A stretch of 64,000 nucleotides of DNA from Polaromonas sp. (GTDB lineage: Bacteria; Pseudomonadota; Gammaproteobacteria; Burkholderiales; Burkholderiaceae_C). A program made the position numbers and the translations under genes. The stretch lies in the NCBI RefSeq assembly GCF_030680935.1, contig NZ_JAUXUP010000015.1, forward strand, positions 1,948 to 65,947, in the 5' to 3' direction. The notes beneath the pieces were generated by a model. It worked only from the letters and a program-made list of their open reading frames with translations, made no database searches and was not told the origin of the DNA. Of the stretch, positions 1,985 to 62,695 are shown one piece after another (positions within the stretch are counted from its first letter, which is position 1; every line of letters starts with the position of its first letter).

Positions 1985-2025
1985 GCTATCAAATAGATAG
2001 CTTCTTACGCCCATTAACAAAGGGC
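1985..2025 (-). repeat. 41-bp spaced motif, copy 1 (intergenic, between convergent slmA and ldh2)
   Basis: GCTA-TCAAATAGAT-AGCT-TCTTA-CGC-CCATTAACAAA-GGGC (reverse orientation). Confidence 0.85.
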
Positions 2026-2064
2026 TAGAGGCCGATTTGATGCCTCATTTCGAATAAAACCGCT

Positions 2065-3129
2065 TCAAGCCTGCACGTTCACGCCCACTTTGGCGCCGGC
2101 CACTACGATTTCCTGCCAGGTCTGGGGGTCCACCGCGATACCTTCCAGCTCGCGCTGTGCGCGGTACGCGCGCTCGGGGTCACCAGCGATCTGTACAGCC
2201 TCAAAACCCGGTGCAACCGGCCCAGCCCGGAGCCAGTCCACAAACGCCACCGCCTCCTGCTCAAAAACCGCTTGTGTGCCGAGTTGGGCCGGATCGATCA
2301 GGATGGTCAGCATGCCGTTGATGACGGCGCGCACTGCGGGGTCTGTGGGTTTGTGCCAGGTACCGCTGCCGGTCAGCGCGCCGCCCAGCAACTCGCAGGC
2401 CACGGCCATGCCGTAGCCCTTGTGTTCGCCGAAGGCCAGCAGCGCGCCAAACAGGCCATTGCTTTGCGGCACCACCACCACCCCCGGGTCGGTCGTGGGC
2501 CTGCCCTGCTCGTCTATCAGTGTGCCGGCTTCGACGCGGCGGCCCTCGTTGTGCGCCACCCGCATCTTGCCCTGCGCCACGCGGCTGGTGGCGAAGTCGA
2601 GGATGAAGGGCTCTCGTCCCTGGAGCGGCATACCAATGCAGCACGGGTTGGTGCCATACCGCCCATCAGCGCCCCCGAAGGGTGCGACCACGGGCCGCGA
2701 CAACACATTGACAAAATGCAGCGACACCAGGCCTTGCGCCACTGCCATCTCCGCGAAGTGCCCGATCCGGCCCAGGTGGTGCGCGTTGGCCAGCGTCATG
2801 ATGCAGCTGCCATGCGTTCTGGCGCGCGCCATGCCCAGCGCCATGGCTTGCTCGCCAACGACCTGGCCATAGCCGCGCTGACCGTCCAGGGTCAGCAGCG
2901 AGCCGGCGTCGAGAACGATCTTGACACTGTTGTTGGGCTTGAGGCCGCCTTCCAGCACCGCGTCCACATAACGCGGCAACATGCCGACACCGTGTGAATC
3001 GTGGCCGCTCAGATTGGCCATCACCAGGTTGGCGGCGACGGCATCTGCCTCTGCGGGCTGGCTGCCGGCCGCTATCAAAACAGTAGCTACTTGCGCACGT
3101 AGAACGGGGGCTTGAAGTGTATTTTGCAT
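2065..3129 (-). CDS. Ldh_2-family (malate/lactate/ureidoglycolate) dehydrogenase, YbiC/HcxB-like
   Basis: ANLSGHDSHGVGMLPRY, NAHHLGRIGHFAE, GTNPCCI, LDFATS, FGEHKGYG motifs. Confidence 0.9.
   Translation of the reverse strand: MQNTLQAPVLRAQVATVLIAAGSQPAEADAVAANLVMANLSGHDSHGVGMLPRYVDAVLEGGLKPNNSVKIVLDAGSLLTLDGQRGYGQVVGEQAMALGMARARTHGSCIMTLANAHHLGRIGHFAEMAVAQGLVSLHFVNVLSRPVVAPFGGADGRYGTNPCCIGMPLQGREPFILDFATSRVAQGKMRVAHNEGRRVEAGTLIDEQGRPTTDPGVVVVPQSNGLFGALLAFGEHKGYGMAVACELLGGALTGSGTWHKPTDPAVRAVINGMLTILIDPAQLGTQAVFEQEAVAFVDWLRAGPVAPGFEAVQIAGDPERAYRAQRELEGIAVDPQTWQEIVVAGAKVGVNVQA
3071..3111 (-). repeat. 41-bp spaced motif, copy 2 (in frame in the ldh2 N-terminus)
   Basis: GCTA-TCAAAACAGT-AGCT-ACTTG-CGC-ACGTAGAACGG-GGGC; encodes APVLRAQVATVLIA. 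Confidence 0.8.
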
Positions 3130-3135
3130 ATAAGC

Positions 3136-4662
3136 CTACATGACCGCGCCAACTTGCCAGGGAACAAACTCGTTTTGCCCGTAGCCATGTTTTTCGCTTT
3201 TACTCGGCTCGCCCGAGGCGGTGGCCAGCACCATCTCGAAAATCCGCTGGCCCATCTCCTGGACGGAGACGCCGCCGTCGATGATTTCGCCGCAATTGAT
3301 GTCCATGTCTTCTTCCTGCTTGCGCCAGAGGGCCGAGTTGGTGGCCAGCTTGAGCGACGGTGAGGGCGCGCAGCCGTAGGCCGACCCGCGGCCGGTGGTA
3401 AAACAAATCAGGTTGGCACCACCTGCCACCTGGCCGGTGGCACTGACCGGGTCGTAGCCGGGTGTGTCCATGTAGACAAAACCGTGGCTGCTGACCGGCT
3501 CTGCGTATTCATACACCGCTTCCAGGTTGCTGGTGCCGCCCTTCGCGACTGCGCCCAGCGATTTCTCCAGGATGGTGGTCAGGCCGCCGGCCTTGTTGCC
3601 GGGCGAGGGATTGTTGTTCATCTCGCCTTCATTGATCTCGGTGTAGTGCTCCCACCACTTGATGCGGGAGATCAGCTTTTCGGCCACATCTGGGCGCACG
3701 GCACGGCGTGTCAGCAAGTGCTCTGCGCCGTAAATCTCCGGTGTCTCGCTGAGAATGGCGGTGCCGCCGTGCGCGACCAGCAGGTCCACTGCCGCGCCCA
3801 GGGCCGGATTCGCGCTGATGCCTGAATAACCGTCCGAGCCGCCGCATTGCAGGCCGATGGTGATGTGGGCGGCACTGCAGGGCTCACGCCGGATGTTATT
3901 GGCCTGGGGCAACATGTCCTTGATCAGTGCAATACCCTTGGCCACGGTTTTGGCAGTACCACCGGTGTCCTGAATGCTGAAGACGCGCAGTGTTTCCCCT
4001 TCACGCAGGCTGCTGTGCGCCAGCCAGGCGTTGATCTGGTTCGACTCGCAACCCAGTCCCACCACCAGCACGCCCGCAAAATTGGGGTGGGTGGCGTAAC
4101 CGGCCAGCGTGCGTTGCAAGATCTGCATGCCCATGCCTTCGGTGTCCATGCCGCAGCCGGTGCCGTGCGTCAGGGCCACCACACCATCGACGTTGGGAAA
4201 GTCTTTCAGTGCCGACGGGTTGTTCTGCTGTGAGAAATAGTCGGCTATCGCGCGCGCTGCGGTGGCCGAGCAATTGACGCTGGACAGGATGCCGATGTAG
4301 TTGCGGGTGGCCACGCGGCCGTCGGCCCGCTTGATGCCCATGAAGCTGGCTTCGCGTCGGGGTGTGGCCGGTTTGACATCGGCGCCAAAGGCATAGTCCC
4401 GCGCAAAGTCGCCTTTGTCGGGGCCCATGTCAAGGTTGTGCGTGTGTACATGGTCGCCGGGCACGATGGCCTTGCTGGCAAAACCAATGATCTGGTTGTA
4501 GCGGCGCACCGGCTCGCCGGCCGCGATGGCGCGCGTGGCTACTTTGTGGCCTGGCGGAATCAGGCCCTTGATGCTGACGTTCTCGGCTTGCGTGCCGCCC
4601 ACCAGTTGCGATCTGGCGATGAGTACGTCGTCAGCGGGGTGGAGTCGGATGAAAGGGGTCAT
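3136..4662 (-). CDS. Altronate dehydratase family (UxaA/GarD) acid-sugar dehydratase with N-terminal SAF domain
   Basis: IPPGHKVA...RYNQIIG SAF domain, RNYIGILSSVNCS, GLQCGGSDGYSG, NPSPGNKAGGLTT, FTTGRGS. Confidence 0.92.
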   Translation of the reverse strand: MTPFIRLHPADDVLIARSQLVGGTQAENVSIKGLIPPGHKVATRAIAAGEPVRRYNQIIGFASKAIVPGDHVHTHNLDMGPDKGDFARDYAFGADVKPATPRREASFMGIKRADGRVATRNYIGILSSVNCSATAARAIADYFSQQNNPSALKDFPNVDGVVALTHGTGCGMDTEGMGMQILQRTLAGYATHPNFAGVLVVGLGCESNQINAWLAHSSLREGETLRVFSIQDTGGTAKTVAKGIALIKDMLPQANNIRREPCSAAHITIGLQCGGSDGYSGISANPALGAAVDLLVAHGGTAILSETPEIYGAEHLLTRRAVRPDVAEKLISRIKWWEHYTEINEGEMNNNPSPGNKAGGLTTILEKSLGAVAKGGTSNLEAVYEYAEPVSSHGFVYMDTPGYDPVSATGQVAGGANLICFTTGRGSAYGCAPSPSLKLATNSALWRKQEEDMDINCGEIIDGGVSVQEMGQRIFEMVLATASGEPSKSEKHGYGQNEFVPWQVGAVM

Positions 4663-4714
4663 GGTTGGGTGTCCGTGAGTGTTTTAGTTAGGGAGAGTGT
4701 TCAGGTGGGTGGTG

Positions 4715-4817
4715 GCCTGGGAGGCTGGGGCGGATAGCTCCGCGAATGTCCCCCGCGTGGCCTAGGGCCACTGCTCCTCCTTGATTTCGCTGCGCTACCC
4801 ACCCCAGCCTCCCAGGC
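4715..4817. repeat. MITE/REP-like hairpin element with 24-bp inverted arms
   Basis: gcctgggaggctggggcggatagc (4715-4738) vs gctacccaccccagcctcccaggc (4794-4817), 22/24 complementary; core cgcgaatgtccccc...ctcctccttgatttcgctgcg. Confidence 0.7.
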
Positions 4818-4868
4818 TGGCCATCGCTCCACGAGGGCGGCACCGAAAACCTGCTAGGCCTGTAGGAT

Positions 4869-4956
4869 CATGTCGGTGCGGTACTCGGCGCAGCGGCATC
4901 AAGGAGGAGGCCGAAGGCCGGGGGACAGCCGCGTAGCTGAGTGCCGCGTCGGCATG
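4869..4956. repeat. Second element of the same core family, inverted, with different arms
   Basis: Arms catgtcggtgcggtactcggc / gctgagtgccgcgtcggcatg; internal cagcggcatcaaggaggaggccgaaggccgggggacagccgcg is the reverse complement of the 4741-4793 core type. Confidence 0.6.
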
Positions 4957-4997
4957 AACCCCACCACGGCAAGCGCATTGGTTTCCCCCAACGCGTT

Positions 4998-6392: not shown

Positions 6393-6404
6393 GTTGACGT
6401 TTTG

Positions 6405-6980
6405 TTATTGGTCGTCCATGGACGACTCGGGCCGCTCCAGCACCGTGTAGCCGCGCCGGTGGTGAAACAGTGCGATCTGCACCGAGCGAAAAGCCATCGC
6501 GGCAAAACCCAGCAGGCACACGCCGTAGACCCAGTTCATCGGCAGGTCCACCATGGTCATGCGCGAGTTGCTGCCCAGCTTGAGCATCATCATCACGGTC
6601 AGTACAGCGGCTGCCGCAAAGAAACCGACACGCAGCACATCCACGGCGGTGGCCATGACCCGTGCCAGCGCGGGCGGCATGAACTTGTAGAAAAAATCGA
6701 CCTGGATGTGGTTGTTTTTGATCACCCCAATGGTCGCGCCGGTGAAAACTACCGCGATCAGCAGATAACGCGCGATTTCTTCGGTCCAGGCGGCGGAGTC
6801 ATTCATCACATAACGCGTGAAGAACTGGTAAAAAACGGTGAGACCCAGCACCCAGAAAAAGCCCAGGGCAACCCAGGCTTCCAGCTTGGTGCCGGATAGG
6901 TCCACCGCTTCGTCCTGAGCGTGGAACTCACCGTCGGCCCCCATCACGGGGGCCATGTCGTCAATGGTTTCGACTTTCAT
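6405..6980 (-). CDS. dctQ: TRAP transporter small permease
   Basis: 4 TM segments; QFFTRYVMNDSAAWTEEIARY, NNHIQVDF; lies between dctP and dctM. Confidence 0.92.
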   Translation of the reverse strand: MKVETIDDMAPVMGADGEFHAQDEAVDLSGTKLEAWVALGFFWVLGLTVFYQFFTRYVMNDSAAWTEEIARYLLIAVVFTGATIGVIKNNHIQVDFFYKFMPPALARVMATAVDVLRVGFFAAAAVLTVMMMLKLGSNSRMTMVDLPMNWVYGVCLLGFAAMAFRSVQIALFHHRRGYTVLERPESSMDDQ

Positions 6981-6992
6981 GCAGACGGGGTG

Positions 6993-7991
6993 CTACTTGA
7001 TTCCGACCACGCGGTCCCAATCCTTTTTGTCCAGCTTCATGGATTCGAAGGTGATGGCTTTGAGTACGCGTTGCTGGAAGTCGGCGCGGTCCACGGTGAC
7101 GACATTGATGCCCTTTTTCTTGAACTCTTCCACCAGTTCGCCTTCGCGCTTGCGGATGTCATTGGTCGCGTTGACTGCAGCTTCCTGCGTCACGTCGGCC
7201 AGCAGCTTCTGCTCGGCGGGCGACAGCTTGCCCATCAGGCCGGGCGAGATCACGGTCAGCAAGGCGTCCGAGATATGGCCGGTCAGGATGATGTTCTTCT
7301 GCACCTCAAAAAACTTCTTGGCCTCAATCGTCGGCAGCGGGTTCTCCTGAGCGTCCACGGTGCCGTTCTGCAGTGCCAGGTAGACCTCTGCAAAGGCGAT
7401 CGGTGTCGGGTTGGCACCGCAGGCACGGGGCAGTGCGGTGTAGGCCGGCGAATCGGGCACGCGCATCTTGATGCCCTTCATCTCGTCGCAGTTCTTGAAC
7501 AGCTTGTTGCTGGTCGCGTGGCGCGCGCCGTAGTAGGTCAGGGCGGTCACCGTGTTGCCGGTGGCTTTTTTGTAGCCTTCGGTCAACTCCTTGAAGATGT
7601 CGCTCTTGCCGTAGGCGATCACATGGTCGGCATCGCGGAAGGTGAAGGGGTAATAGCTGACTGCCAGGCGCGGGAAGGAGTTGGAGGCAAACGACGCGCC
7701 GGTCAGGATGATGTCCACTGTGCCCAGTTGCAGGCCCTGGTTGATGTCGCTTTCCTTGCCGAGGCTGGAAGCGGGAAAGACCTGGATCTCATACTTGCCG
7801 TTGGTGCGTTTCTTGAATTCGTCGGCGGCCCAGACCGACCACTTGTGGTAAGGCTCCGATGTCTCATAGACGTGTGCCCATTTCAGTTTTGTCTGCGCAT
7901 TTGCAATACCGAAAGGGGCTGTAGCCCCTGTCAGTATTGCGCAAGCAGCTATTACTTTAAGAGCAAATTGTTTTCTTGTCAGCGCTTTCAT
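6993..7991 (-). CDS. dctP: TRAP transporter substrate-binding protein
   Basis: Signal peptide; KGIKMRVP (conserved Arg for carboxylate binding), EVYLALQNGTVDAQENP. Confidence 0.93.
   Translation of the reverse strand: MKALTRKQFALKVIAACAILTGATAPFGIANAQTKLKWAHVYETSEPYHKWSVWAADEFKKRTNGKYEIQVFPASSLGKESDINQGLQLGTVDIILTGASFASNSFPRLAVSYYPFTFRDADHVIAYGKSDIFKELTEGYKKATGNTVTALTYYGARHATSNKLFKNCDEMKGIKMRVPDSPAYTALPRACGANPTPIAFAEVYLALQNGTVDAQENPLPTIEAKKFFEVQKNIILTGHISDALLTVISPGLMGKLSPAEQKLLADVTQEAAVNATNDIRKREGELVEEFKKKGINVVTVDRADFQQRVLKAITFESMKLDKKDWDRVVGIK
7924..7964 (+). repeat. 41-bp spaced motif, copy 3 (antisense, within the dctP signal peptide)
   Basis: GCCC-CTGTCAGTATT-GCG-CAAGC-AGCT-ATTACTTTAA-GAGC; the gene strand encodes ALKVIAACAILTG. 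Confidence 0.75.
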
Positions 7992-17596: not shown

Positions 17597-17637
17597 TTGC
17601 CGGATTTTCCCCAAATTTTGAGCCTTTTGGCATTGGA

Positions 17638-17678
17638 GCCCTTATGTACCGTGCGCTAGCCGCTATTGTTTTGGGAGC
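17638..17678 (+). repeat. 41-bp spaced motif, copy 4 (contains the DUF2147 start codon and signal peptide)
   Basis: GCCC-TTATGTACCGT-GCG-CTAGC-CGCT-ATTGTTTTGG-GAGC (2 anchor mismatches). Confidence 0.6.
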
Positions 17679-18078
17679 AAGTTGCATCTCCGGTTTTGCC
17701 CAGATGACTCCTGTTGGCGTTTGGCGCAACCTGGACGACAAGACCGGTGAGGCGAAAGCCGAGATACGCATTGTTGAAGCCGGTGGTGTGCTCAGCGGCA
17801 AGATCGATAAACGTATTGGCAAGGACATCAAGCCCGATGACAGCTGCGACCAGTGCAGCGACGACCGCAAGGACAAACCCATCCTCGGGCTTGAAATCAT
17901 TCGTGGCGCCAAAAAGGCCGAAGGCAAAGACGTGTGGGAAGGCGGCAAGATTCTGGACCCCGAAAACGGCCGCAATTACAGCCTGCGCATGACGCCCATC
18001 GATGCCGGAAAAAAGCTTGAAGTACGGGGCTCGTTCGGCCCCTTTGGGCGAACCCAGACCTGGGTCCGTATGAATTGA
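17644..18078 (+). CDS. DUF2147 domain secreted protein
   Basis: Signal peptide; PVGVWRNLDD, C..C, ILGLEII, WEGGKILDPENG..Y, GRTQTW.R. Confidence 0.85.
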   Translation: MYRALAAIVLGASCISGFAQMTPVGVWRNLDDKTGEAKAEIRIVEAGGVLSGKIDKRIGKDIKPDDSCDQCSDDRKDKPILGLEIIRGAKKAEGKDVWEGGKILDPENGRNYSLRMTPIDAGKKLEVRGSFGPFGRTQTWVRMN

Positions 18079-24595: not shown

Positions 24596-25359
24596 GCAAC
24601 GACATCCTGATCCACACCGAAGCGGGCGTGATGACCATCACGCTGAACCGGCCCGAGCGCAAGAACTCCATCACTTCGGCGATGTATGGCGCCATGGCCG
24701 ATGCGCTGGCTGCCGCCCAGGCAGATGTCGCGATCCGGGTCGTGGTGCTGCAAGGGCACGAAACCATTTTCAGCGCCGGTAACGACATCGGCGATTTCCT
24801 GAACAAACCGCCCGCCGGGATGGACTCGCCGGTGTTCCGCTTTCTGCGCGGCATCGCGGCCTTTCCCAAGCCGCTGGTGGCGGCTGTCTGTGGTCCGGCG
24901 GTGGGGGTGGGTACCACCATGCTGCTGCACTGCGACCTGGTCTATGCAGGTGACAATGCGGCCTTTTCCATGCCTTTTGTCAACCTTGGCCTGTGCCCGG
25001 AGGCAGCCTCCAGCCTGCTGCTGCCACAAATGCTGGGTTATCACCGCGCCGCAGAAGCCCTGTTGCTCGGCGAGCCCTTCATGGCCGAGGCGGCACTCGA
25101 AGTGGGCCTGGTCAACCGCGTTGTAGCGCCCACCGAGGCCAACAACCTGGCGCAATCGGTGGCAAAAAAACTCGCCGCCAAGCCCATGACCTCGCTGGTC
25201 GAGACCAAGCGGCTGATGAAAAAGGGCCAGCAGCAGCTAGTGGCGCAGCAAATGGACGAGGAAGGCGCCAGCTTCGGGCGTATGCTGGGCGAACCAGCGG
25301 CGCGCGAAGCTTTCGGCGCCTTCATGGCAAAGCGCAAGCCGGATTTTTCAAAAGTTTAA
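24592..25359 (+). CDS. Enoyl-CoA hydratase/isomerase
   Basis: LNRPERKNS, FSAGND, AVGVGTT, PFVNLGLCPEAAS. Confidence 0.92.
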   Translation: MSNDILIHTEAGVMTITLNRPERKNSITSAMYGAMADALAAAQADVAIRVVVLQGHETIFSAGNDIGDFLNKPPAGMDSPVFRFLRGIAAFPKPLVAAVCGPAVGVGTTMLLHCDLVYAGDNAAFSMPFVNLGLCPEAASSLLLPQMLGYHRAAEALLLGEPFMAEAALEVGLVNRVVAPTEANNLAQSVAKKLAAKPMTSLVETKRLMKKGQQQLVAQQMDEEGASFGRMLGEPAAREAFGAFMAKRKPDFSKV

Positions 25360-25377
25360 GCATCAAATAGAACTCTA

Positions 25378-25418
25378 GCCCTTATTTAACGGGCGTAGAC
25401 AGCTATCAATTCAGTAGC
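25378..25418 (+). repeat. 41-bp spaced motif, copy 5 (intergenic)
   Basis: GCCC-TTATTTAACGG-GCG-TAGAC-AGCT-ATCAATTCAG-TAGC; ~60 bp including the flank resembles the reverse complement of copy 1. Confidence 0.88.
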
Positions 25419-25431
25419 ATCAGGAGGTTGT

Positions 25432-29142: not shown

Positions 29143-30782
29143 CAGTTTTCCAGTCAGGGTTCAATTCACAGGGCGCGGTGGCCCTTCAGCGCCGCGAAGC
29201 CATGCTGGCGCGTATCGCGGCGCTGCGGGCGTTGGAAGACCGCGCAGCCCAGGCCTCGGCCAAATCGAAGCCGGTGTTCGACAAGCGCGGCCAGTTGTTG
29301 CCGCGCGAGCGCGTTGCCTTGCTGCTCGACCCGGGCACACCCTATTTGCCGATTTGCGCATTGGCCGGTTTCATGCAGGACAACAAGGACCCCGCGCTGT
29401 CAGTGCCCGGCGGGGGCGTCGTTGCGGGTATCGGATTTATCGAAGGCACGCGCTGCATGATCGTTGCCAGTGATTCCGGGATTGAGGCCGGTGCCATCCA
29501 GGCCATGGGGCTGGAGAAAATCCTGCGCGTGCAGGAGATCGCGTTACAGAACAAGTTGCCCTTTGTCCACCTGGTTGAAAGCGCTGGGGCCAACCTGATG
29601 CGTTACCGGGTTGAGGGTTTTGTCCACGGTGGCGCCCTGTTTCGCAACCTCGCGCGCCTGTCGGCTGCGGGCATTCCAGTCATCACCGTACAGCACGGTT
29701 CGGGCACGGCAGGCGGTGCCTACATGCCGGGCCTCAGTGATGTGGTCATCATGGTGCGCAATCGCTCGCGCGCTTTTCTGGCGGGCCCGCCGCTGCTGAT
29801 GGCGGCGACGGGCGAAGTGGCGACCGAGGAAGAGCTGGGTGGCGCCGAGATGCACACCAGCGTCTCGGGCCTGGGCGAGCAACTGGCTGAGGACGACCGG
29901 CAGGCGCTGGGCCTGGCGCGGCAGGTAGTTGGCCGCACATCATGGTCAATTCGGGCTTCAGCCCTTGCCGGACACGCGCAGTCAGCTATTGAATCCATAG
30001 CAAACGAGCCCTTGTATGCGGCGGAAGACTTGCTCGGCTTGATGGCCGCTGACTTGCGCCAGCCGGTGGACATGCAGGAGGTCATGGCCCGGCTGGTTGA
30101 TGGCTCGGATTTCCTGCCCTTCAAGGCCCTGTATGGCGCGGCAACGGTGTGTGTGCAGGCCAGCATGGGCGGCCATGCGGTGGGCATCATCAGCAACAAC
30201 GGCCCGATTGATGTGGCCGGTGCCAACAAGGCCACACACTTCATCCAGATGTTGTGCCAGCTGGGTCACCCCATCATCTATTTGCAGAACACCACGGGTT
30301 ACATGGTTGGCAAGGACAGCGAGCAGGGCGGCATGATCAAACACGGCTCCAAGATGATCCAGGCCGTCACCAACGCCACAGTGCCGCAAATCACCATCCA
30401 GTGCGGTGCCTCGTTTGGCGCGGGTAACTACGGCATGTGTGGCCGGGGTTACGCACCGCGCTTCCTGTTCAGCTGGCCCAGTGCCAAAACTGCTGTGATG
30501 GGCGGCGAGCAGGCGGCGCGCACCATGCAGATCGTGACCGAGGCGGCCATGCTGCGCAAAGGCATTGCGGTGGACGCGGCGCAATCGCAGGCGCAGTTTG
30601 ACAAGATCGTGTCGGTGTTCGAGGCGCAGGCCGACGCCTTCTACACCTCTGGACTGCTGCTGGATGATGGCGTGATTGACCCGCGCGACACCCGGGCCGT
30701 GCTGACGCAATGCCTGGCCATGTGCGCCGACGCAGCAACGCGGCAACTGCGGCCCATGCAGTTTGGCGTAGCCCGGATGTGA
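29139..30782 (+). CDS. atuC: Geranyl-CoA carboxylase beta (carboxyltransferase) subunit
   Basis: RERVALLLDPG, LVESAGANL, GAGNYGMCGR, PRDTR...MQFGVARM. Confidence 0.85.
   Translation: MTVFQSGFNSQGAVALQRREAMLARIAALRALEDRAAQASAKSKPVFDKRGQLLPRERVALLLDPGTPYLPICALAGFMQDNKDPALSVPGGGVVAGIGFIEGTRCMIVASDSGIEAGAIQAMGLEKILRVQEIALQNKLPFVHLVESAGANLMRYRVEGFVHGGALFRNLARLSAAGIPVITVQHGSGTAGGAYMPGLSDVVIMVRNRSRAFLAGPPLLMAATGEVATEEELGGAEMHTSVSGLGEQLAEDDRQALGLARQVVGRTSWSIRASALAGHAQSAIESIANEPLYAAEDLLGLMAADLRQPVDMQEVMARLVDGSDFLPFKALYGAATVCVQASMGGHAVGIISNNGPIDVAGANKATHFIQMLCQLGHPIIYLQNTTGYMVGKDSEQGGMIKHGSKMIQAVTNATVPQITIQCGASFGAGNYGMCGRGYAPRFLFSWPSAKTAVMGGEQAARTMQIVTEAAMLRKGIAVDAAQSQAQFDKIVSVFEAQADAFYTSGLLLDDGVIDPRDTRAVLTQCLAMCADAATRQLRPMQFGVARM
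29961..30001 (+). repeat. 41-bp spaced motif, copy 6 (in frame in the atuC inter-domain linker)
   Basis: GCCC-TTGCCGGACAC-GCG-CAGTC-AGCT-ATTGAATCCA-TAGC; encodes ALAGHAQSAIESIA. Confidence 0.8.
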
Positions 30783-31984: not shown

Positions 31985-32784
31985 TGACCCCAGCCATGGC
32001 CCCCAAGTTACAGATCACCCGTTCGGGTGAGGTCGAGCATTGGACGCTGCACGATCCCGCCACACGCAACGCGCTGACCGAAGAGCTTGTGGGCGCCTTG
32101 CAGCTGGCCTGCGAGCGCGTGAGCGCAGACGCCGCGCTGCGTTTTGTGGTGTTGCAGGGCAGTGACGGCGCCTTTTGTGCCGGCGGCAGCCTGGGCGGTT
32201 TTGCCGCCTCTATTGGCCAGGCGCTGCCGGCCGGGCAAACCGATCCGCTGATTGCGATGAATGCGGGCTTTGGCAGCTTGCTGAACAGCCTCAGCGCGCT
32301 GCCACAGATCTTGCTGGTGGCCGTGGACGGGCCAGCCATGGGTGGCGGCCTGGGCCTGGTGTGTTGCGGCGATTTTGTGCTGGCTTCTCCGGCTGCGGTG
32401 TTTGCCACGCCTGAAGTCACCCTGGGCGTGGTGCCCGCACAGATTGCACCCTTTGTGCACCGGCGGCTGGGTGACCGCCACGCGCGTCAGTTGCTGCTTT
32501 CTGGGCAAAAGCTGTCTGCAGAGCAAGCGCTGGGGCTGGGGCTGGTGGACGAAGTTGCAGCTGATTTGCAAGCCGCCGTGGCGCAACGTATCCAGCTGTT
32601 GCGCCGCGCAGCACCTGGCGCGGTGGCCCACACCAAGGCTTTGTTTTGTATGCTCAATCAGGCTGCAGCCCAGGACATACAAGCGCAAGCAGCTCTCAAA
32701 TTCGTAGCGAATTTGCGCAGCCCTGAAGCCGCTGAAGGCTTGGCAGCGTTTGCGCAAAAGCGCAAGCCCGGGTGGGCGGCATGA
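31984..32784 (+). CDS. atuE: Isohexenylglutaconyl-CoA hydratase-like crotonase
   Basis: FCAGGSL, GPAMGGGLGL, PEVTLGVVPAQIAPFV, AFAQKRKPGW; TGATG coupling to atuD. Confidence 0.8.
   Translation: MTPAMAPKLQITRSGEVEHWTLHDPATRNALTEELVGALQLACERVSADAALRFVVLQGSDGAFCAGGSLGGFAASIGQALPAGQTDPLIAMNAGFGSLLNSLSALPQILLVAVDGPAMGGGLGLVCCGDFVLASPAAVFATPEVTLGVVPAQIAPFVHRRLGDRHARQLLLSGQKLSAEQALGLGLVDEVAADLQAAVAQRIQLLRRAAPGAVAHTKALFCMLNQAAAQDIQAQAALKFVANLRSPEAAEGLAAFAQKRKPGWAA
32668..32708 (+). repeat. 41-bp spaced motif, copy 7 (in frame in the atuE C-terminal helix)
   Basis: GCCC-AGGACATACAA-GCG-CAAGC-AGCT-CTCAAATTCG-TAGC; encodes AQDIQAQAALKFVA. Confidence 0.8.
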
Positions 32785-46752: not shown

Positions 46753-47549
46753 GTATTCATGTTGAAAAAAATGGGGAGGTCACGGTCATCACGCTGGACC
46801 GCCCCGACGTGCGCAATGCAGTGGACAGCGACCATGCGCGTGAACTCTACGAAGCTTTTCTGGCCTTTGATACCGATGACAGCGCGAAGGTAGCGGTGTT
46901 CCATGGCGCGAACGGACATTTCTGTGCCGGCTGGGATTTGCAGTTCGGCGCAAAGCTGCTGCGCGAAGCGCAGGGCGGCGATGCCGGGGTGTTTGCGGAC
47001 CTGGAATTCCAGGCAGAGGACAAACAGCCAGCCGGTCCCATGGGCCCCTCCCGGCTGCTGCTGTCCAAACCGGTGATTGCCGCCGTCAGCGGCGCAGCCG
47101 TCGCCGGCGGCATGGAGCTGGCGCTGTGGTGCGACATGCGGGTGATGGAGGAAGACGCCTACTTCGGCGTGTATTGCCGCCGCTTCGGTGTGCCGCTGAT
47201 CGACGGCGGCACGGTGCGCTTGCCGCGCCTGATCGGTATGGGCCATGCGATGGATTTGATCCTGACCGGTCGCAAGGTTGAGTCGGCGGAAGCTTTGCAG
47301 ATGGGGCTGTGCAACCGGGTGGTGCCGCGCGGCACAGCGCGCGAGGCGGCGCTGGCATTGGCGCGGCAACTCTCGACTTTTCCGCAGAAAACCATGCTGG
47401 CGGATCGCCAGAGTGTTTACACGCAGTGGCACCTGCCCTTGCCGCAGGCGCTCAAGCAGGAGTGGGACCGCGGCCGGGAATGTATTGCCGAGGGCCTGCA
47501 GGGCGCCGCGCGTTTTGCCGGCGGGCAGGGCCGGCACGGCAAGTTTTAG
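46749..47549 (+). CDS. Crotonase/enoyl-CoA hydratase
   Basis: LDRPDVRNAVD, FCAGWDL, AVAGGMELALWCD, CRRFGVPLIDGGTVRLPR. Confidence 0.92.
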   Translation: MSIHVEKNGEVTVITLDRPDVRNAVDSDHARELYEAFLAFDTDDSAKVAVFHGANGHFCAGWDLQFGAKLLREAQGGDAGVFADLEFQAEDKQPAGPMGPSRLLLSKPVIAAVSGAAVAGGMELALWCDMRVMEEDAYFGVYCRRFGVPLIDGGTVRLPRLIGMGHAMDLILTGRKVESAEALQMGLCNRVVPRGTAREAALALARQLSTFPQKTMLADRQSVYTQWHLPLPQALKQEWDRGRECIAEGLQGAARFAGGQGRHGKF

Positions 47550-47566
47550 TTGGAAGAAGGCCTCCA

Positions 47567-47607
47567 GCCCATACCAGACGAGCGTGATCAGCTATCAAAA
47601 GCAGAGC
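47567..47607 (+). repeat. 41-bp spaced motif, copy 8 (between convergent genes)
   Basis: GCCC-ATACCAGACGA-GCG-TGATC-AGCT-ATCAAAAGCA-GAGC. Confidence 0.75.
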
Positions 47608-47611
47608 GGAT

Positions 47612-48100: not shown

Positions 48101-49924
48101 ATGCGCTCCTATGCCCCCGCCGCCGAAGCACCGCCAGCCCCCGGCGCAACCCCCGCCCCCGACATAAACCGCTCCGACTGGGCCACGCTCCAGCGCCTGT
48201 TTCCCTACCTCTGGGACTACAAATGGCGCGTGCTGGCTGCCCTGAGCTTCATGGTCGGCGCCAAGGTTGCCAATGTCGGTGTGCCGCTGCTGCTGAAAAA
48301 CCTTGTCGATGCGATGAGCTTCAAACCAGGCGACGTGCAAATCGTGCTGGTGGTGCCGGCCGCCTTGCTGGTGGGGTACGGCCTGCTGCGCCTGTCCACC
48401 TCCTTGTTCACCGAGCTGCGCGAGCTGGTGTTTGCCAAGGCCACCGAAGGCGCGGCGCGCCGCATCTCGCTGGAGGTGTTCCGGCATCTGCATGCGCTGA
48501 GCCTGCGTTTTCACCTGGAGCGCCAGACCGGCGGCATGACGCGCGACATCGAACGCGGCACTCGCGGCGTGCACTCGCTGATTTCGTATTCGCTGTACAG
48601 CATCATCCCGACGTTGATCGAAGTCACGCTGGTGCTGACGCTGCTGGCGGTCAAGTTCGACGTCTGGTTTGCCGGCATCACCATCATTGCGCTGGTGTTC
48701 TACATCACCTTCACTGTCACGGTGACAGAGTGGCGCACCAAGTTCCGCAAGGAGATGAACGAGCTCGACTCCACGGCGCACAGCCGGGCCATCGACTCGC
48801 TACTGAATTACGAAACCGTCAAGTACTTCAACAACGAAGACTTTGAAGCGAAACGCTACGACGAGAACCTGCTGCGTTACCGCCGCGCTGCGGTCAAGAG
48901 CCAGACCACACTGAGCATGCTCAACACCGGCCAGCAACTGATCATTGCTGCCGGCCTGGTGGCCATGCTCTGGCGCGCCACGCAGGGCGTGGTGGACGGC
49001 CGCATGACACTGGGCGACCTGGTCATGGTCAATGCCTTCATGATCCAGCTCTACATTCCGCTGGGTTTTCTGGGCGTGTTGTACCGCGAGATCAAGCAAA
49101 GCCTGACCGACCTGTCCAAAATGTTCACCCTGATGGAAAAGGAGCGCGAAATCGCCGACCAGCCCGGCGCACAGCCCCTGAGTCTGCAGGCCTCGCCAGC
49201 GCTGCGGTTTGAAAATGTCAGCTTTGCCTACGAGCCGTCACGGCCCATCCTGCACAACATCAGCTTCGAGATTCCGCCCGGTAAAACCGTCGCGGTGGTG
49301 GGCTCGTCCGGAGCCGGCAAGTCCACGCTGGCGCGGCTGCTGTTCCGTTTCTACGACGTCCAGCAGGGTCGCATCACGGTGGCCGGCCAGGACATCAAGC
49401 AGGTGACCCAGGCCAGCGTGCGCCAGGCGATAGGCATCGTGCCGCAAGATACGGTGCTGTTCAACGACACGGTGGAATACAACATCGCCTACGGCCAGCC
49501 CGGCGCCAGCCGCGCCCAGGTGGAAGAAGCCGCGCGCGCTGCGCGCATCCATGACTTCATCAGTTCCACCCCTGCCGGCTACGGCACCATGGTCGGCGAG
49601 CGCGGGCTGAAACTGTCCGGCGGCGAAAAGCAGCGCGTGGCGATTGCACGCACCCTGCTGAAGAACCCGCCCATCATGATTTTTGACGAGGCGACCTCGG
49701 CGCTGGACTCTGCCAACGAACGCGCGATCCAGGCGGAACTTCGCAGCATTGCTGAGAACAAAACCACGCTGGTGATCGCGCACCGCCTGTCCACGGTGGT
49801 GGATGCCCATGAAATCCTGGTGATGGAAGCCGGCCAGATCATCGAGCGCGGCACCCACGCCGAGTTGCTGGCGTTGGGGCAGCGTTATGCGGCGATGTGG
49901 GCGTTGCAGCAAAGCGCCGAATAA
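48101..49924 (+). CDS. Atm1-like ABCB exporter (permease plus ATPase)
   Basis: FHLERQTGG, IDSLLNYETVKYF, GSSGAGKST, LSGGEKQR, DEATSALD. Confidence 0.92.
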   Translation: MRSYAPAAEAPPAPGATPAPDINRSDWATLQRLFPYLWDYKWRVLAALSFMVGAKVANVGVPLLLKNLVDAMSFKPGDVQIVLVVPAALLVGYGLLRLSTSLFTELRELVFAKATEGAARRISLEVFRHLHALSLRFHLERQTGGMTRDIERGTRGVHSLISYSLYSIIPTLIEVTLVLTLLAVKFDVWFAGITIIALVFYITFTVTVTEWRTKFRKEMNELDSTAHSRAIDSLLNYETVKYFNNEDFEAKRYDENLLRYRRAAVKSQTTLSMLNTGQQLIIAAGLVAMLWRATQGVVDGRMTLGDLVMVNAFMIQLYIPLGFLGVLYREIKQSLTDLSKMFTLMEKEREIADQPGAQPLSLQASPALRFENVSFAYEPSRPILHNISFEIPPGKTVAVVGSSGAGKSTLARLLFRFYDVQQGRITVAGQDIKQVTQASVRQAIGIVPQDTVLFNDTVEYNIAYGQPGASRAQVEEAARAARIHDFISSTPAGYGTMVGERGLKLSGGEKQRVAIARTLLKNPPIMIFDEATSALDSANERAIQAELRSIAENKTTLVIAHRLSTVVDAHEILVMEAGQIIERGTHAELLALGQRYAAMWALQQSAE

Positions 49925-49947
49925 ATTGAGAATGTTTCAGCGCTCCA

Positions 49948-49988
49948 GCCCAATCAGAGTTTGCGCGAGCAGCTCCTTATTTGATAGC
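49948..49988 (+). repeat. 41-bp spaced motif, copy 9 (intergenic)
   Basis: GCCC-AATCAGAGTTT-GCG-CGAGC-AGCT-CCTTATTTGA-TAGC. Confidence 0.85.
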
Positions 49989-50067
49989 GGGTGGGGTACG
50001 TGCTGGCGGTTCCAGTCTGCGGGATTCCCATACACCGGCCATCGCCGTCTCCTCGCATAATTGCCCC

Positions 50068-56784: not shown

Positions 56785-57575
56785 ACGCTGGCGCGCCGTT
56801 TTCTGCGCTACCTATCGCCTGGAGCCAGCCCTGGTTGGAGCCCTGGCGTGAAACCGGCCAATGCGTGGCACAAAACATCGCAGGCGGTGCCCCGATTCAT
56901 GATGCGCTGAACCAGCAGCAGGCTGGCGTCCCGCGCTTTGTGCCACAAAGCGCCTTGCCGCCGGGGCACGCCTATGAACAGTTCATTTCCGAAACAGGTG
57001 CTGTCCCTACCCGCAACAACCTGCACGACTTTTTCAACGGCCTGTGCTGGCTGCGCTTTCCTGAAACCAAGAAAAAACTCAACCAGCTGCAAGCATCAGA
57101 AATTGCCAGTGCGGGTGTTACCCCTCTGCGCGGGCCGGTGCGCGATGCGCTGACGGTGTTTGACGAAAATGCGGCTTTCCTGCAGGCGCCGCAACCGCTT
57201 TGGGATGCCCTGCTGGCGCGCGACTGGCTGCGCTTGTTTGTGGACCTGCGGCCGCTGTGGCAGCAGGCGCAGCTGGTGCTCTTTGGCCACGCGTTGCTGG
57301 AGAAGCTGCTTGATCCACGAAAAACGATCACAGCCCATGTGTACCGAGCGCAACCAGCTATGAATTCGATAGCGAAACTGGACGCCTGGGTGGCGCAAGA
57401 CTTAAGCGCTGGCAAGCTGGCCGGCAAGCCATTTACCCCTTTGCCCGTGTTGGGTGTTCCGGGCTGGTGCGCCGAAAACGAGAACTTTTCCTTTTATGAT
57501 GATTCCTCTGTTTTCAGGCCGCGCAGCGCAGGAGCCCGCAGAAAAACCCGTGTAGTGGGCTGTGGTGAGACTTGA
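56781..57575 (+). CDS. DUF3025 domain protein
   Basis: FVPQ..LP.G..YE..I, PTR.NLHDFFN, RDALTVFDEN, FGHALLEKL, PLPVLGVPGW. Confidence 0.85.
   Translation: MNAGAPFSALPIAWSQPWLEPWRETGQCVAQNIAGGAPIHDALNQQQAGVPRFVPQSALPPGHAYEQFISETGAVPTRNNLHDFFNGLCWLRFPETKKKLNQLQASEIASAGVTPLRGPVRDALTVFDENAAFLQAPQPLWDALLARDWLRLFVDLRPLWQQAQLVLFGHALLEKLLDPRKTITAHVYRAQPAMNSIAKLDAWVAQDLSAGKLAGKPFTPLPVLGVPGWCAENENFSFYDDSSVFRPRSAGARRKTRVVGCGET
57333..57373 (+). repeat. 41-bp spaced motif, copy 10 (in frame in DUF3025)
   Basis: GCCC-ATGTGTACCGA-GCG-CAACC-AGCT-ATGAATTCGA-TAGC; encodes AHVYRAQPAMNSIA. Confidence 0.8.
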
Positions 57576-58564: not shown

Positions 58565-58596
58565 AAAAAGCCGCTGCTGCTGCAGCGGCTTTTTTT
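58565..58596. terminator. Bidirectional intrinsic terminator
   Basis: aaaaagccgctgc-tgct-gcagcggcttttttt between convergent genes. Confidence 0.85.
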
Positions 58597-60229: not shown

Positions 60230-60285
60230 GGCGGGTGTACCTCGTGGATCTGTATTTCGGATCTGTGAAGCATTTTAGGTCACTG

Positions 60286-60326
60286 GCCCATATGGGGCTT
60301 GCGCAACCAGCTATCAAATAAGTAGC
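60286..60326 (+). repeat. 41-bp spaced motif, copy 11 (in the rnpB promoter region)
   Basis: GCCC-ATATGGGGCTT-GCG-CAACC-AGCT-ATCAAATAAG-TAGC, ending 27 bp before rnpB. Confidence 0.85.
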
Positions 60327-60353
60327 AGACGAATTGCCGGGATAATAGACCCC

Positions 60354-60681
60354 GTGAAGCACGCCAGACTGCCGCTGGTGCAAGGGTGGAAACACCGCAC
60401 TGGAGGAAGGTCCGGACTGCACAGGGCAGCGTAGCAGCTAACGGCTGTCCACCGTGAGGTGAGGATCAGAGCTACAGAGACGAGCCGGTTAAGTCCGGGT
60501 GAAACGAGCAATCTCTACGCGCAGCAATACCAAGTAGGCACACGTTGACGGGGCCCCCGGAGTGTGCGGGTAGGTAGCACCGAGCCGTCTGGCGACAGAC
60601 GGCCCAGATTAATGGCAGTCACGGGGCGGTAACCGCAAGGAAGTCGTTCCGCACAAAATCCGGCCTATCGGCGGGCTTCAC
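60354..60681 (+). ncRNA. rnpB: RNase P RNA, class A
   Basis: GAGGAAGGTCCGGACT (P4), GGGTGAAAC, GAGCAATAC-like, ACAAAATCCGGCCTA; P1 pairing GTGAAGC...GCTTCAC. Confidence 0.95.
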
Positions 60682-60683
60682 AC

Positions 60684-61046
60684 TTATTCAGCTTGCTTGA
60701 AGATCGACAAATCAAGCGGCCGCACGGCTCCCATCCAGATCGCATGGTCGCGGTGGTCGGCAAGGTCGTCACCCGTCAGCGGATGGGTGAATATCACCAA
60801 CCCCTCCCGGTTCAGCGCCAGCCAGGTGATGACTTCACCCGCTATCGCCGCATCAAAGGCCAGCTGACAACTCCAGTCCGGGTGAGGGCCCACAGGCTGC
60901 TGATGAATACGCCCCATTTGCAAGGGAAAGCGCCGCGCTGCCGCTTCACACAGGCTGCGCGCTTTTTCCAGGCTGCTGGCGTCAAAGTACACATGGGCAT
61001 GAAAACCCGTGACCGGCGCTTGTGGGGTGATGCTTGCGGTGTTCAT
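60684..61046 (-). CDS. DOPA 4,5-dioxygenase family protein
   Basis: FHAHVYFD, GPHP.WS.Q, L.IFTHPLTG....DH...AIW.G; start overlaps the upstream stop (TGATG). Confidence 0.88.
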   Translation of the reverse strand: MNTASITPQAPVTGFHAHVYFDASSLEKARSLCEAAARRFPLQMGRIHQQPVGPHPDWSCQLAFDAAIAGEVITWLALNREGLVIFTHPLTGDDLADHRDHAIWMGAVRPLDLSIFKQAE

Positions 61047-62695
61047 CAGGCTGAAAATCCTGCTGACTGGATTCTCTCCACATGCGCCAGCAGCGACCGT
61101 TTGGCCACCGGCCAGATGCGTGGGTCCACATCGTCGTAGGCGAGTTTGACCCAGTCGTCCATCGATCCATCCGGTTGCGCCTGCATCACGCCAATGATTT
61201 TGGCTTCGCGTTTCAGGCGGTGCGCCTTGAGCTGGGCAATCGCGGTTTTGGCTTCGCCAATCACGTAGCCGTGGGCCGGCGCGATGAAGCTGATGCCGTG
61301 TTCGTCGCAGGCGGCGCTGAGGCCGTCCAGCGACTCCAGGTAGGCGTTCATGTTGCCGTCGGGCGGGTCCACCACGGTGGTGCTGCCGTTGAGGATGTGG
61401 TCGCCGCTGAACAAAATACCGTCTTCCACCAGCACCAGGCACAGGTGGTTGGCGGCGTGGCCGGGGGTGTGAATCACCTTCAATGTGTGAGTTATTTTGG
61501 CCTCTGGCCCTTGTCCCGCAAGCGTGAGCAGCTCCTGATTTGATAGCGACCGGTCGGGCGCAAACTGGCTGGCGGCTCGGGCTGTGGGTGCCGAGGGCAG
61601 GCCCAGAATCGGTGGGGGTGTGCCACACATCGCCTGCAGCGGTTTGGCGCCCGGCGAGTGGTCGGCGTGTGAGTGGGTGCACACAATCATGCGGATGTTG
61701 CCGCCCGCTGCGCGCCACAGGCGTTGCAGGTGGTCGCTGTCCGCCGGGCCGGGGTCGATCGCGATGTAGCCGGTGTTCGGGTCGCCGACCAGGTAGCTGT
61801 TGGTGCCGGGGCCGGTCATCACGCCGGGGTTGGGTGCGGTCAGGCGCATCAGGTTTTTCAGCAGCGCCGCGGGTTGCGCCGTCTGCCAGTCGAGTGCGTG
61901 CACCATCTGCCCGTCGGGGCTGGTCAGCGCGAGTTCGCCATACGGTGCTTCATGCTCCATGTAGCGTGCTTCGGCCCCTTCCAGAAAACCGGCGCGCGGG
62001 CAGGATGTCCACAGCGGCTGTTCTGAAGCGGCGCAGGCCTGCAGCACGGCATCCACGGTTTTGAAATGCTGCAGGCGCTGCAGCGTGCGTATGGTCGGGA
62101 AGATGATAAAAAAGCCGCCGGCTTCATGCCGCGCCAGCGCGTCGGCCGGCCGCACCCAGCAGGGTTCAAACTGCTCGGCTTCGTCGGCCACCGGCTCCTG
62201 GCCCTCGGGCATGCGCGCCACCAGAAAAGGCACATCAAAGCGGCGTGGCAGATCCCGGTCGGTGACCCAGTGCGCCAGCACAAACACCTGGTCGCCGGCC
62301 AGTACCAGGCCTTGGTCGCGGCACTGCGCGGCAAACGGCGCCTTGCGGTCCAGCGCCGCGATGTCGGCGGTGGTCGCATGGCTGCCGTCGGCATGACGGG
62401 CCAGCAGCACGCCGAGTTCTTCAAAACTTTCGCGGATGGCGGCAATCGCCTGTGTCAGGTGCAAATCGCTCTGGCTGGCGCGGCGCGTGGACTGCGCATG
62501 CGCCGCACTGTCGGCTGCATCGATGCCGCCGCCGGGGAAGACATAGGCGCCCGGCGCAAAACTGGCTGTCATGGAGCGCCGCGTCATCAGCACCTCGATG
62601 CCTTGCGGGCTGTCGCGCAGAAGCAGCACGGTGGCCGCAGGGCGGGTGGGCGCGGGTTCGCGCTGCGGGTACAGGAGTTGGGAGGGTCGGACCAT
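61046..62695 (-). CDS. Nudix (NUDT19-like) + MBL-fold (LACTB2-like) fusion protein
   Basis: N-terminal RPAATVLLLRD..FAPGAYVFPGG..AIRESFEELG; C-terminal APNPGVMTGPGTNSY, THSHADHS, HTPGHAANH, SGDHIL, PAHG plus winged helix. Confidence 0.88.
   Translation of the reverse strand: MVRPSQLLYPQREPAPTRPAATVLLLRDSPQGIEVLMTRRSMTASFAPGAYVFPGGGIDAADSAAHAQSTRRASQSDLHLTQAIAAIRESFEELGVLLARHADGSHATTADIAALDRKAPFAAQCRDQGLVLAGDQVFVLAHWVTDRDLPRRFDVPFLVARMPEGQEPVADEAEQFEPCWVRPADALARHEAGGFFIIFPTIRTLQRLQHFKTVDAVLQACAASEQPLWTSCPRAGFLEGAEARYMEHEAPYGELALTSPDGQMVHALDWQTAQPAALLKNLMRLTAPNPGVMTGPGTNSYLVGDPNTGYIAIDPGPADSDHLQRLWRAAGGNIRMIVCTHSHADHSPGAKPLQAMCGTPPPILGLPSAPTARAASQFAPDRSLSNQELLTLAGQGPEAKITHTLKVIHTPGHAANHLCLVLVEDGILFSGDHILNGSTTVVDPPDGNMNAYLESLDGLSAACDEHGISFIAPAHGYVIGEAKTAIAQLKAHRLKREAKIIGVMQAQPDGSMDDWVKLAYDDVDPRIWPVAKRSLLAHVERIQSAGFSA
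61507..61547 (+). repeat. 41-bp spaced motif, copy 12 (antisense, within the MBL domain)
   Basis: GCCC-TTGTCCCGCAA-GCG-TGAGC-AGCT-CCTGATTTGA-TAGC; the gene strand encodes LSNQELLTLAGQG. Confidence 0.8.

Follow-up and report, generated by a model that had tools for sequence, protein, structure and literature searches.

DNA uptake sequences have a core of 9 to 12 bp (about 30 bp with flanks), recur about once per kilobase, and are also known on mobile DNA. Rickettsia palindromic elements (RPE) are 100 to 150 bp long and palindromic, and are true insertions that add 30 to 50 residues to proteins. For the repetitive extragenic palindromes (REP) and bacterial interspersed mosaic elements (BIME) of enterobacteria, it has been proposed that selection keeps each site for a local benefit. 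The betaproteobacterial repeat element (BRE; Hot et al. 2011, PMC3110155) has been described in Polaromonas, Rhodoferax, Acidovorax and Delftia, where it is mostly intergenic with some copies in coding sequences; it is 75 to 91 bp long, about 69% G+C, bounded by T runs, built of GC-rich hairpin-like blocks, and often arranged as a variable-number tandem repeat. Here we analyze a dispersed element in a 64,000-nucleotide stretch of Polaromonas sp. DNA (contig NZ_JAUXUP010000015.1), referred to below as the window. An earlier reading of these letters without database searches, the sequence-only reading, had reported 12 copies of a 41-bp motif, GCCC-N11-GCG-N5-AGCT-N10-TAGC, with 15 anchor bases and hypervariable spacers, and had proposed that it is a site recognized by a protein. 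Our analysis extends the motif to about 70 bp, and finds copies that replace coding sequence without changing its length and that recur widely in the Comamonadaceae and on some of their phages.

Results

Reality and extent of the element

All 12 copies were present at the positions and on the strands that had been reported. By exact search, nine carried all 15 anchor bases, and the three imperfect copies (7924 and 47567, which end in GAGC, and 17638, with two mismatches) were recovered when up to two mismatches were allowed. Dinucleotide shuffles of the window gave 0.00 exact matches and 0.36 matches at up to two mismatches. One additional two-mismatch match, at 14707 on the reverse strand, was GC-rich, had no matrix score, and is attributed to chance. 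The sequence-only reading had proposed a codon-preserving control; shuffling of synonymous codons or of codon order left no exact genic match, and the same shuffles of the predicted genes produced no nhmmer hit of at least 30 bits in 12.8 Mb.

The fixed length of the motif and its core were borne out, but the true conserved unit is about 70 bp, reaching from 25 bp upstream of the 41-mer through 4 bp downstream (-24 to +45, counted from the G of GCCC). When copies were aligned with their flanks, the edges of this unit were sharp, with information dropping to zero at both ends. Length was constant, apart from an indel in 1 of 183 nhmmer profile alignments, and the 70 columns together held about 61 bits. 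The consensus from 136 to 193 copies in other genomes was as follows:

..TT......AAAT.GGCCTCTAGCCC(ccgtggatAtT)GCGCAAGCAGCTAT.AAAT..ATAGCA

The spacers, described earlier as free, proved to have a weak consensus (N11, approximately CCGTGGATAtT; N5, approximately CAAGC; N10, approximately ATnAAAtnnA), and the anchors were 93 to 100% conserved across about 190 to 280 copies, and hence are not invariant. The looser AAATnGGCCTCTA flank before GCCC and the GCTAT...ATAGC near-dyad were both real.

A position weight matrix was trained solely on copies from outside the window. With this matrix the 12 window sites scored 48 to 70 bits, and no other site in the 64 kb fell between 0 and 40 bits. Scores were similarly two-peaked in Polaromonas loci (94 strong versus 8 intermediate sites) and in loci not selected for the motif (22 versus 4), and strong copies far exceeded intermediate ones in every sequence set. 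In the literature, no description was found of this element as a Comamonadaceae repeat or uptake sequence. We conclude that the 41-bp motif forms the center of a genuine 70-bp DNA signal that has apparently not been described before.

The 12 copies of the window

A gene map of the window was made by codon log-odds (57 genes, 93% coding), part of which was annotated through Pfam and PDB searches. In the list below, phase 0 denotes the one frame of the element that is reliably stop-free on either strand, as judged from the consensus by eye.

Copy 1: 1981..2050, minus strand, core 1985-2025, 70.3 bits; occupies the 85-bp spacer between a TetR/SlmA-like gene (1257-1979, plus) and a convergent Ldh_2 gene (2065-3129, minus).
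Copy 2: 3067..3136, minus strand, core 3071-3111, 57.4 bits; spans the Ldh_2 start (ATG at 3129) with the opening ~21 codons of that gene, coding strand, phase 0; the Pfam Ldh_2 match begins at residue 8, profile position 4.
Copy 3: 7899..7968, plus strand, core 7924-7964 with GAGC end, 61.0 bits; in the signal-peptide codons of a DctP-family TRAP solute-binding protein gene (6993-7991, minus), antisense, reverse phase 0.
Copy 4: 17613..17682, plus strand, core 17638-17678 with two anchor mismatches, 48.2 bits; spans the start and signal peptide of a DUF2147 gene (17644-18078, plus), coding strand, phase 0.
Copy 5: 25353..25422, plus strand, core 25378-25418, 70.1 bits; occupies the spacer that runs from the enoyl-CoA hydratase stop codon (gene at 24592-25359) up to the ribosome-binding site of an SDR gene (25432).
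Copy 6: 29936..30005, plus strand, core 29961-30001, 57.1 bits; in the inter-domain linker of an acyl-CoA carboxylase beta gene (geranyl-/methylcrotonyl-CoA type, 29139-30782), coding strand, phase 0.
Copy 7: 32643..32712, plus strand, core 32668-32708, 63.3 bits; in the C-terminal helix of a crotonase gene (31984-32784), coding strand, phase 0.
Copy 8: 47542..47611, plus strand, core 47567-47607 with GAGC end, 49.7 bits; occupies the 62-bp spacer between convergent enoyl-CoA hydratase (46734-47549, plus) and thioesterase (47612-48058, minus) genes.
Copy 9: 49923..49992, plus strand, core 49948-49988, 54.7 bits; begins at the stop codon of an ABC transporter gene (48101-49924, plus), upstream of a LysR-family gene (probable start 50068).
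Copy 10: 57308..57377, plus strand, core 57333-57373, 50.7 bits; inside the DUF3025 domain of the gene at 56781-57575, coding strand, phase 0.
Copy 11: 60261..60330, plus strand, core 60286-60326, 56.1 bits; in the spacer between the divergent genes for an FAD-dependent protein (58595-60229, minus) and RNase P RNA (60356-60683, plus).
Copy 12: 61482..61551, plus strand, core 61507-61547, 56.2 bits; in a loop region of a NUDIX plus metallo-beta-lactamase-fold gene (61046-62695, minus), antisense.

Five copies (1985, 25378, 47567, 49948 and 60286) were intergenic and seven lay inside genes, all seven of which are conserved. The intergenic copies essentially fill whole short spacers and are non-coding, with stops in all frames. 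Six of the seven genic copies were in phase 0, the exception being copy 12, whose region is just 3 to 4 residues longer than in human LACTB2. This map and the loci from other genomes confirmed that copies occur at every type of gene junction as well as within genes. The RNA gene beside copy 11 was recognized as bacterial class A RNase P RNA (209.8 bits). Since copy 11 ends 25 bp upstream of this gene, the rnpB promoter must either lie against the element or overlap with it.

Conservation of orthologous copies

Over shared genes, the window was about 80 to 83% identical to Polaromonas eurypsychrophila and Polaromonas sp. SM01. The positions orthologous to copies 25378, 29961, 32668 and 57333 were occupied in other Polaromonas species, that of 57333 in Polaromonas sp. 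SM01 (L075) and in L005. At the site following the enoyl-CoA hydratase gene (24592-25359), a copy was present in many divergent lineages with its anchors kept and its spacers scrambled, and orthologous copies in species of about 80% identity likewise retained their anchor bases and differed in their spacers.

Pairs of window copies shared 37.5 of 70 positions, and the expectation from independent draws from the matrix was also 37.5. The highest identity reached by a window pair (which pair was not established) was 51/70, above the 95% bound of 49, and the spacers of copies 1985 and 25378 were alike by eye. Apart from this, similarity among copies within a genome did not exceed the matrix prediction, so young subfamilies are absent. 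Retention of anchors, scrambling of spacers and matrix-level similarity together point to position-specific purifying selection or an equivalent drive. These data indicate that recent copying is a poor fit to the pattern of constraint, and a site read by a protein, as the sequence-only reading had it, is a better fit than a recently copied mobile element.

The clearest sign of recent duplication was found in L017 (4690-5050), where an inverted pair of copies 250 bp apart had near-identical spacers (57/70). The pair encloses an A+T-rich segment downstream of a putative queF gene, named from its translation.

Replacement of coding sequence without change of length

The crotonase copy provided the most complete comparison. 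No gap was found across the element relative to PDB homologues, and 29 outgroup orthologues without the element differed in length by 0 or +1 codon. The 69-bp segment was 64% diverged from the outgroups, compared with 29% in its flanks; between outgroups, the corresponding values were 39% for the segment and 26% for the flanks. G+C content was 48% within the element and 70% in the flanks. As distant crotonase homologues look element-free, the direction of change is a gain. By these alignments, the copy was acquired in a Polaromonas clade (the window, L121 and L049), overwriting an ancestral helix.

Two linkers gave comparable results. Copy 6, in the carboxylase beta linker, was present in L049 and L121 and absent from L122 and L123, in which the linker was shorter by 30 bp rather than 70. 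In the MCC-alpha linker, L132, L160, L171 and L176 carried a copy, L147 had a degraded one, and L185 and L191 had none; length differed by 3 bp at most, and peptide homology was retained across the element. Among these element-free orthologues, no presence/absence difference of about 70 bp was observed (0 to 3 bp for crotonase and MCC-alpha, 30 bp for the variable linker). The Ldh_2, DUF3025 and metallo-beta-lactamase-fold (MBL) genes contained no domain-sized insertion, and no added peptide segment of element length, of the kind known from RPE, was seen in host proteins.

Among chromosomal copies in other genomes, 33 of 43 genic copies were in phase 0. Read forward, this phase encodes an Ala/Gln-rich helix, N-Q-P-L-A-x-V-x-x-A-Q-A-A-I-K-x-I-A; in reverse, it encodes the hydrophobic A-I-x-F-I-A-A-C-A, which is suited to signal peptides. 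Frame use by genic copies matches coding tolerance. The element overwrites coding sequence with length unchanged, and is tolerated only where coding allows.

Distribution, density and presence on phages

A scan of one genome per species with a slightly tightened pattern returned at least 120 stretches. Among the matches listed, almost all were from Comamonadaceae (Polaromonas, Rhodoferax, Acidovorax, Giesbergeria, Hylemonella, Curvibacter, Simplicispira, Ottowia and Ca. Aalborgicola), and the few from other phyla had matrix scores below 0. The numbers of strong copies per 100 kb were as follows:

This window: 19 (1 per 5.3 kb).
Polaromonas and Rhodoferax loci, excluding the copy by which each locus was selected: about 8-11.
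Comamonadaceae metagenome loci picked via a protein (751 kb): about 3 (~1 per 34 kb).

The extrapolation to hundreds of copies per genome applies to high-density lineages alone (19 per 100 kb in the window versus about 3 in the loci that were not selected for the motif).

On viral contigs the pattern was found in 92 stretches, 72 of which had copies of at least 40 bits; among them are a Mu-like transposable phage and a contig that carries tail genes. Phage copies lay in linkers of giant proteins, in the tails of Cro-like proteins, in an MmeI-type enzyme at the linker that joins its target-recognition (TRD) and C-terminal domains, and in the C-terminal tail of what is, judging its sequence by eye, probably a C5 methyltransferase. 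Genic copies on phage contigs were co-oriented with their genes 34:3. As intergenic phage copies were unoriented, this bias reflects the strand that can be translated harmlessly.

In the Mu-like phage L284 (7225-8400, minus strand), copies formed the N-termini of three small open reading frames (ORFs) between the ner-like and transposase genes. These ORFs have about 45 bp of common upstream sequence and an element-encoded N-terminus, MSFK(K/T)N(Q/K)P...; their C-terminal parts were mutually unrelated and matched no PHROG or Pfam family. On phage contigs L282 (5672-6285) and L205 (2987-3518), two direct copies bracketed a small nuclease gene. The bracketed genes encode an HNH_3 endonuclease, adjoining a tape-measure gene, and a YbcO-family putative nuclease. 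L249 (25-7236, plus strand) carries a gene for a 2403-residue phage/plasmid "polyvalent" protein with an apparent intein-like insertion (a C...HNT-type block, by eye), and an MmeI-type gene adjoins it.

Orientation and gene-content junctions

Of 154 chromosomal copies in other genomes, 72% were intergenic and about 28% genic. Intergenic copies were flanked by genes in the ++ (31), -- (38), convergent (30) and divergent (12) arrangements, and genic copies were co-oriented with their gene in 25 cases and antisense in 18. Orientation is independent of transcription. The 10:2 strand skew of the window had been taken as a possible sign of replichore polarity; it was not reproduced in other genomes, where GC skew on the element strand was positive at 71 and negative at 71 of 142 copies, so that replichore polarity gained no support.

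Two window copies lay exactly at breakpoints of gene content, one at a 12.9-kb segment absent from L046 and one at a 2.2-kb segment absent from L049. These cases, and the phage genes bracketed by paired copies, suggested a role as a cassette or indel junction, similar to integron attC sites. This role was rejected, as 15 of 892 insertion junctions fell near an element end compared with 24 of 1000 ordinary alignment breaks. The larger segment (1980-14905) is a block of about 11 genes that opens with copy 1, follows the stop codon of the TetR/SlmA-like gene, includes genes for Ldh_2, a galactarate/altronate dehydratase and the DctP-family binding protein, and is missing from the otherwise syntenic L046. 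The smaller (25423-27616), missing from P. eurypsychrophila (L049), starts at the 3' edge of copy 5 and holds the SDR gene together with a TPR + methyltransferase gene. Positions 27581-36377 hold an acyclic-terpene/leucine-type catabolic cluster in the order TetR regulator, SDR, acyl-CoA carboxylase beta, acyl-CoA dehydrogenase, crotonase, biotin carboxylase alpha and further genes. The best PDB match of its beta subunit was geranyl-CoA carboxylase, and the alpha subunit was named from position and size. In the close relatives L122 and L123, the crotonase gene is entirely missing between the dehydrogenase and alpha-subunit genes.

Comparison with known sites and structures

Candidate identities were examined against the copies. 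ARAGORN found no tRNA or tRNA-like element, and the sole Rfam match in the window was the RNase P RNA, with nothing on the copies at E values up to 10. RNAalifold gave 4 invariant pairs with a covariation term of 0, and single-sequence folds were inconsistent, so that a conserved hairpin was rejected. Mutual information across 193 copies showed no long-range dependency, only dependencies between neighboring bases (e.g., AAA versus TTT tracts). An early impression that the upstream flank pairs at long range with N10 was unsupported by the fold and mutual-information tests, and the same analyses showed no inverted termini. A single search across sequencing runs of any kind listed DNA metagenomes only, with no search confined to RNA runs. 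No copy carried a terminator-like site, in agreement with the view that the motif is not a terminator, or a sigma-70 promoter-like site. Checks by eye against the consensus sequences of sigma-54, IHF, Fis and dif yielded no convincing match, and a 10- to 11-bp (10.5-bp) periodicity of A+T content was not dominant.

The features of transposition were also absent. There were no terminal inverted repeats (TIR) and, as first noted from the letters alone, no target-site duplications (TSD): among 283 copies, no flanking repeat of 3 to 6 bp was found at any offset (best, 17 observed versus 7 expected). No transposase was found among the ~22 of 57 predicted window genes scanned against Pfam or PDB. 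With no TIR, no TSD and no element-length presence/absence polymorphism, the element was rejected as a MITE (miniature inverted-repeat transposable element). A very old REP family, one of the candidates first offered, is contradicted by the lack of a palindrome and by copies that are not extragenic insertions. BRE was rejected as well, since its sequence is different and its published Bordetella copies (PMC3110155) share no consensus with the element by eye.

Discussion

We consider that the element is a protein-recognized DNA signal evolving in place, a reading to which we assign a probability of about 0.6. That the underlying process is specifically an uptake-like, recombination-coupled drive is suggested by analogy with uptake sequences, and we put it forward only tentatively, at less than even odds. 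Recognition by a protein, the drive, and a role in uptake or recombination are all inferred from the patterns described above. The interpretation offered by the sequence-only reading is, as a whole, partly supported.

Under the favored model, the signal would be about 70 bp of double-stranded DNA read via a fixed array of G+C blocks (GGCC, CTAGCCC, TGCGCA, CAGCTAT and ATAGCA) set in A+T-rich, probably bendable, spacers. Its reader would presumably be a sequence-specific protein or complex common to the Comamonadaceae. A copy would arise through same-length overwriting of resident sequence, by directed substitution or short-patch conversion, and its position-specific pattern would then be maintained over long periods. 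If a DNA-handling machine prefers the motif, recombination could spread and preserve motif-bearing alleles, a molecular drive that selection may reinforce. Such a drive would push tolerant DNA toward the preferred sequence: the short spacers at gene ends and, within genes, linkers, termini, signal peptides and surface helices, entered via the one stop-free frame per strand.

Several observations weigh against this model. A 70-bp span and one copy per 5 to 34 kb are far from the core length and density of uptake sequences, and no literature report was found of sequence-specific uptake, or even of natural transformation, for these genera. If the drive worked by point mutation, emerging or decaying sites of intermediate score should be left behind, and very few exist. 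An uptake signal predicts no shared orientation of neighbors, yet adjacent copies were co-oriented above chance (39:15 in chromosomal loci, window included); in viral loci, adjacent copies shared orientation 10:1. The shared orientation of chromosomal neighbors was unexplained by gene direction or GC skew. The inverted pair in L017 suggests that copying occurs at least sometimes. Finally, some 60 bits is far above what a binding site needs for uniqueness, and common descent would give the same. The 70-bp size, low density, scarcity of intermediates and clustering of orientation are misfits to the favored guess, and leave structuring-site and templated-replacement explanations standing.

The first of these, which we regard as rather unlikely, is that the element is bound by an abundant protein of chromosome structure or topology, for example a nucleoid-associated protein, or serves as a "strong site" of gyrase or a topoisomerase, and is kept by ordinary purifying selection for its local benefit. 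The spread of G+C blocks within A+T-rich tracts over about 6.5 helical turns is suggestive of DNA that is wrapped or bent, and the preference for gene ends (30 convergent versus 12 divergent spacers), the strong anchor constraint and the independence of orientation from transcription are all consistent with such a site. So is the presence of copies on phages; phage Mu requires a strong gyrase site. However, A+T content lacks a dominant 10- to 11-bp periodicity, density varies about 6-fold between related lineages, and for abundant DNA-binding proteins the strength of sites normally grades continuously, whereas scores here are all-or-none. This explanation also leaves unaccounted for the overwriting of a conserved helix with a spacer a few hundred base pairs away.

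The second is a selfish repeat that would spread by templated replacement, with an existing copy as the template for gene conversion or template switching. Without cut-and-paste there would be no added length and no duplication, and only copies in tolerant places would survive. A master consensus that extends into the spacers, about 60 shared bits and all-or-none scores look copy-derived, and the crotonase segment, 64% diverged from the ancestral DNA at unchanged length, is what overwriting would leave. The inverted pair in L017, the resemblance of copies 1985 and 25378, the top window pair, and phage copies that flank small accessory genes (including the HNH and YbcO nuclease genes) are in keeping with this idea. 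On the other side, there is no TSD, and we know of no mechanism for base-for-base replacement of non-homologous sequence. Similarity within the genome is otherwise at matrix level, and the far stronger conservation of anchors than of spacers in orthologues needs selection or drive besides copying. Peptide homology persists across the MCC-alpha element, and insertion/deletion junctions are not enriched for copies. We therefore judge templated replacement unlikely. A further reading, to which we give similarly little weight, would be a new class of signal: a sequence of about 70 bp and 60 bits written by templated, length-preserving replacement, even into conserved helices, linkers and signal peptides of proteins, and then held by a dedicated recognition system. 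Such a signal would belong neither to the transposons nor to the classical uptake sequences, and would be common to Comamonadaceae and their phages.

A repeated RNA-level element (a small RNA, a signal for mRNA processing or stability, a promoter or a terminator) is highly improbable. It could account for the 10 of 12 window copies that run in the same direction as neighboring genes, for the co-orientation of genic phage copies, and for the copy that ends just before the RNase P RNA gene. The copies have no consensus fold, covariation, long-range mutual information or Rfam family, and no sigma-70 promoter-like or terminator-like site; orientation is unrelated to flanking genes among the 154 chromosomal copies, and phage intergenic copies are unoriented. 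A shared peptide motif (an Ala-rich helix or signal-peptide-like segment), with DNA similarity as a by-product of coding, might explain the predominance of phase 0 and the recurrence of the forward phase-0 peptide in phage proteins, but has almost no chance of being correct: it is already contradicted by the antisense copies and by the intergenic ones (72% of chromosomal copies, and five in the window with stops in all frames), and the motif fixes synonymous positions against genome codon bias and is abolished by synonymous shuffling.

If the element is indeed a protein-recognized signal, a family of common freshwater, soil and glacier bacteria would carry an undescribed long DNA signal, in as many as several hundred copies per genome if the observed densities are extrapolated, that overrides codon bias and rewrites parts of conserved enzymes. 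It would provide a second, independent system in which to study how DNA-level preference shapes proteomes; to our knowledge, work on this question has so far relied solely on the short uptake sequences found in Haemophilus and Neisseria. It would also point to a DNA-recognizing machine, the search for which is made feasible by a defined 70-mer with clear anchors. The motif is in addition a sensitive metagenome marker for DNA of Comamonadaceae and their phages, and in annotation it gives rise to spurious "conserved peptide" motifs.

Among described repeats, BRE shares with the element its genera and its mixture of intergenic and some genic copies, but is unrelated in sequence. Like REP/BIME elements, which are associated with REP-associated tyrosine transposases (RAYT), and like MITEs, the element is short, dispersed and present in hundreds of copies, with enrichment at gene 3' ends and in short spacers. 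It differs from them in having no hairpin, inverted repeat, GTAG head, TIR or TSD, in showing no presence/absence indel of its own size, and in that more than half of the window copies are genic, whereas REP are strictly extragenic. RPE are closer in habit, being old, degenerate repeats that occur between genes and in frame within genes at tolerated places, keep orthologous sites, and have no recognizable transposase, TIR or TSD. Unlike RPE, the element has no palindrome, and its element-free homologues are the same or nearly the same length.

The uptake signal sequences (USS) of Pasteurellaceae and the DNA uptake sequences (DUS) of Neisseriaceae offer the best available analogy, as the sequence-only reading had suggested. 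The element is longer, at 70 bp in four or five blocks, is 5 to 30 times sparser, has almost no near-miss sites, and tends to share orientation between neighboring copies. In common with USS and DUS, it is heavily over-represented across a whole family in both orientations (both strands among 150 to 280 copies), carries more information than binding requires, and sets G+C-rich core blocks in A+T-rich flanks. As with those sequences, its copies occupy spacers and genes alike, cause no indels relative to homologues, settle in tolerant parts of proteins and in permissive frames, keep their orthologous positions, and are found on mobile DNA.

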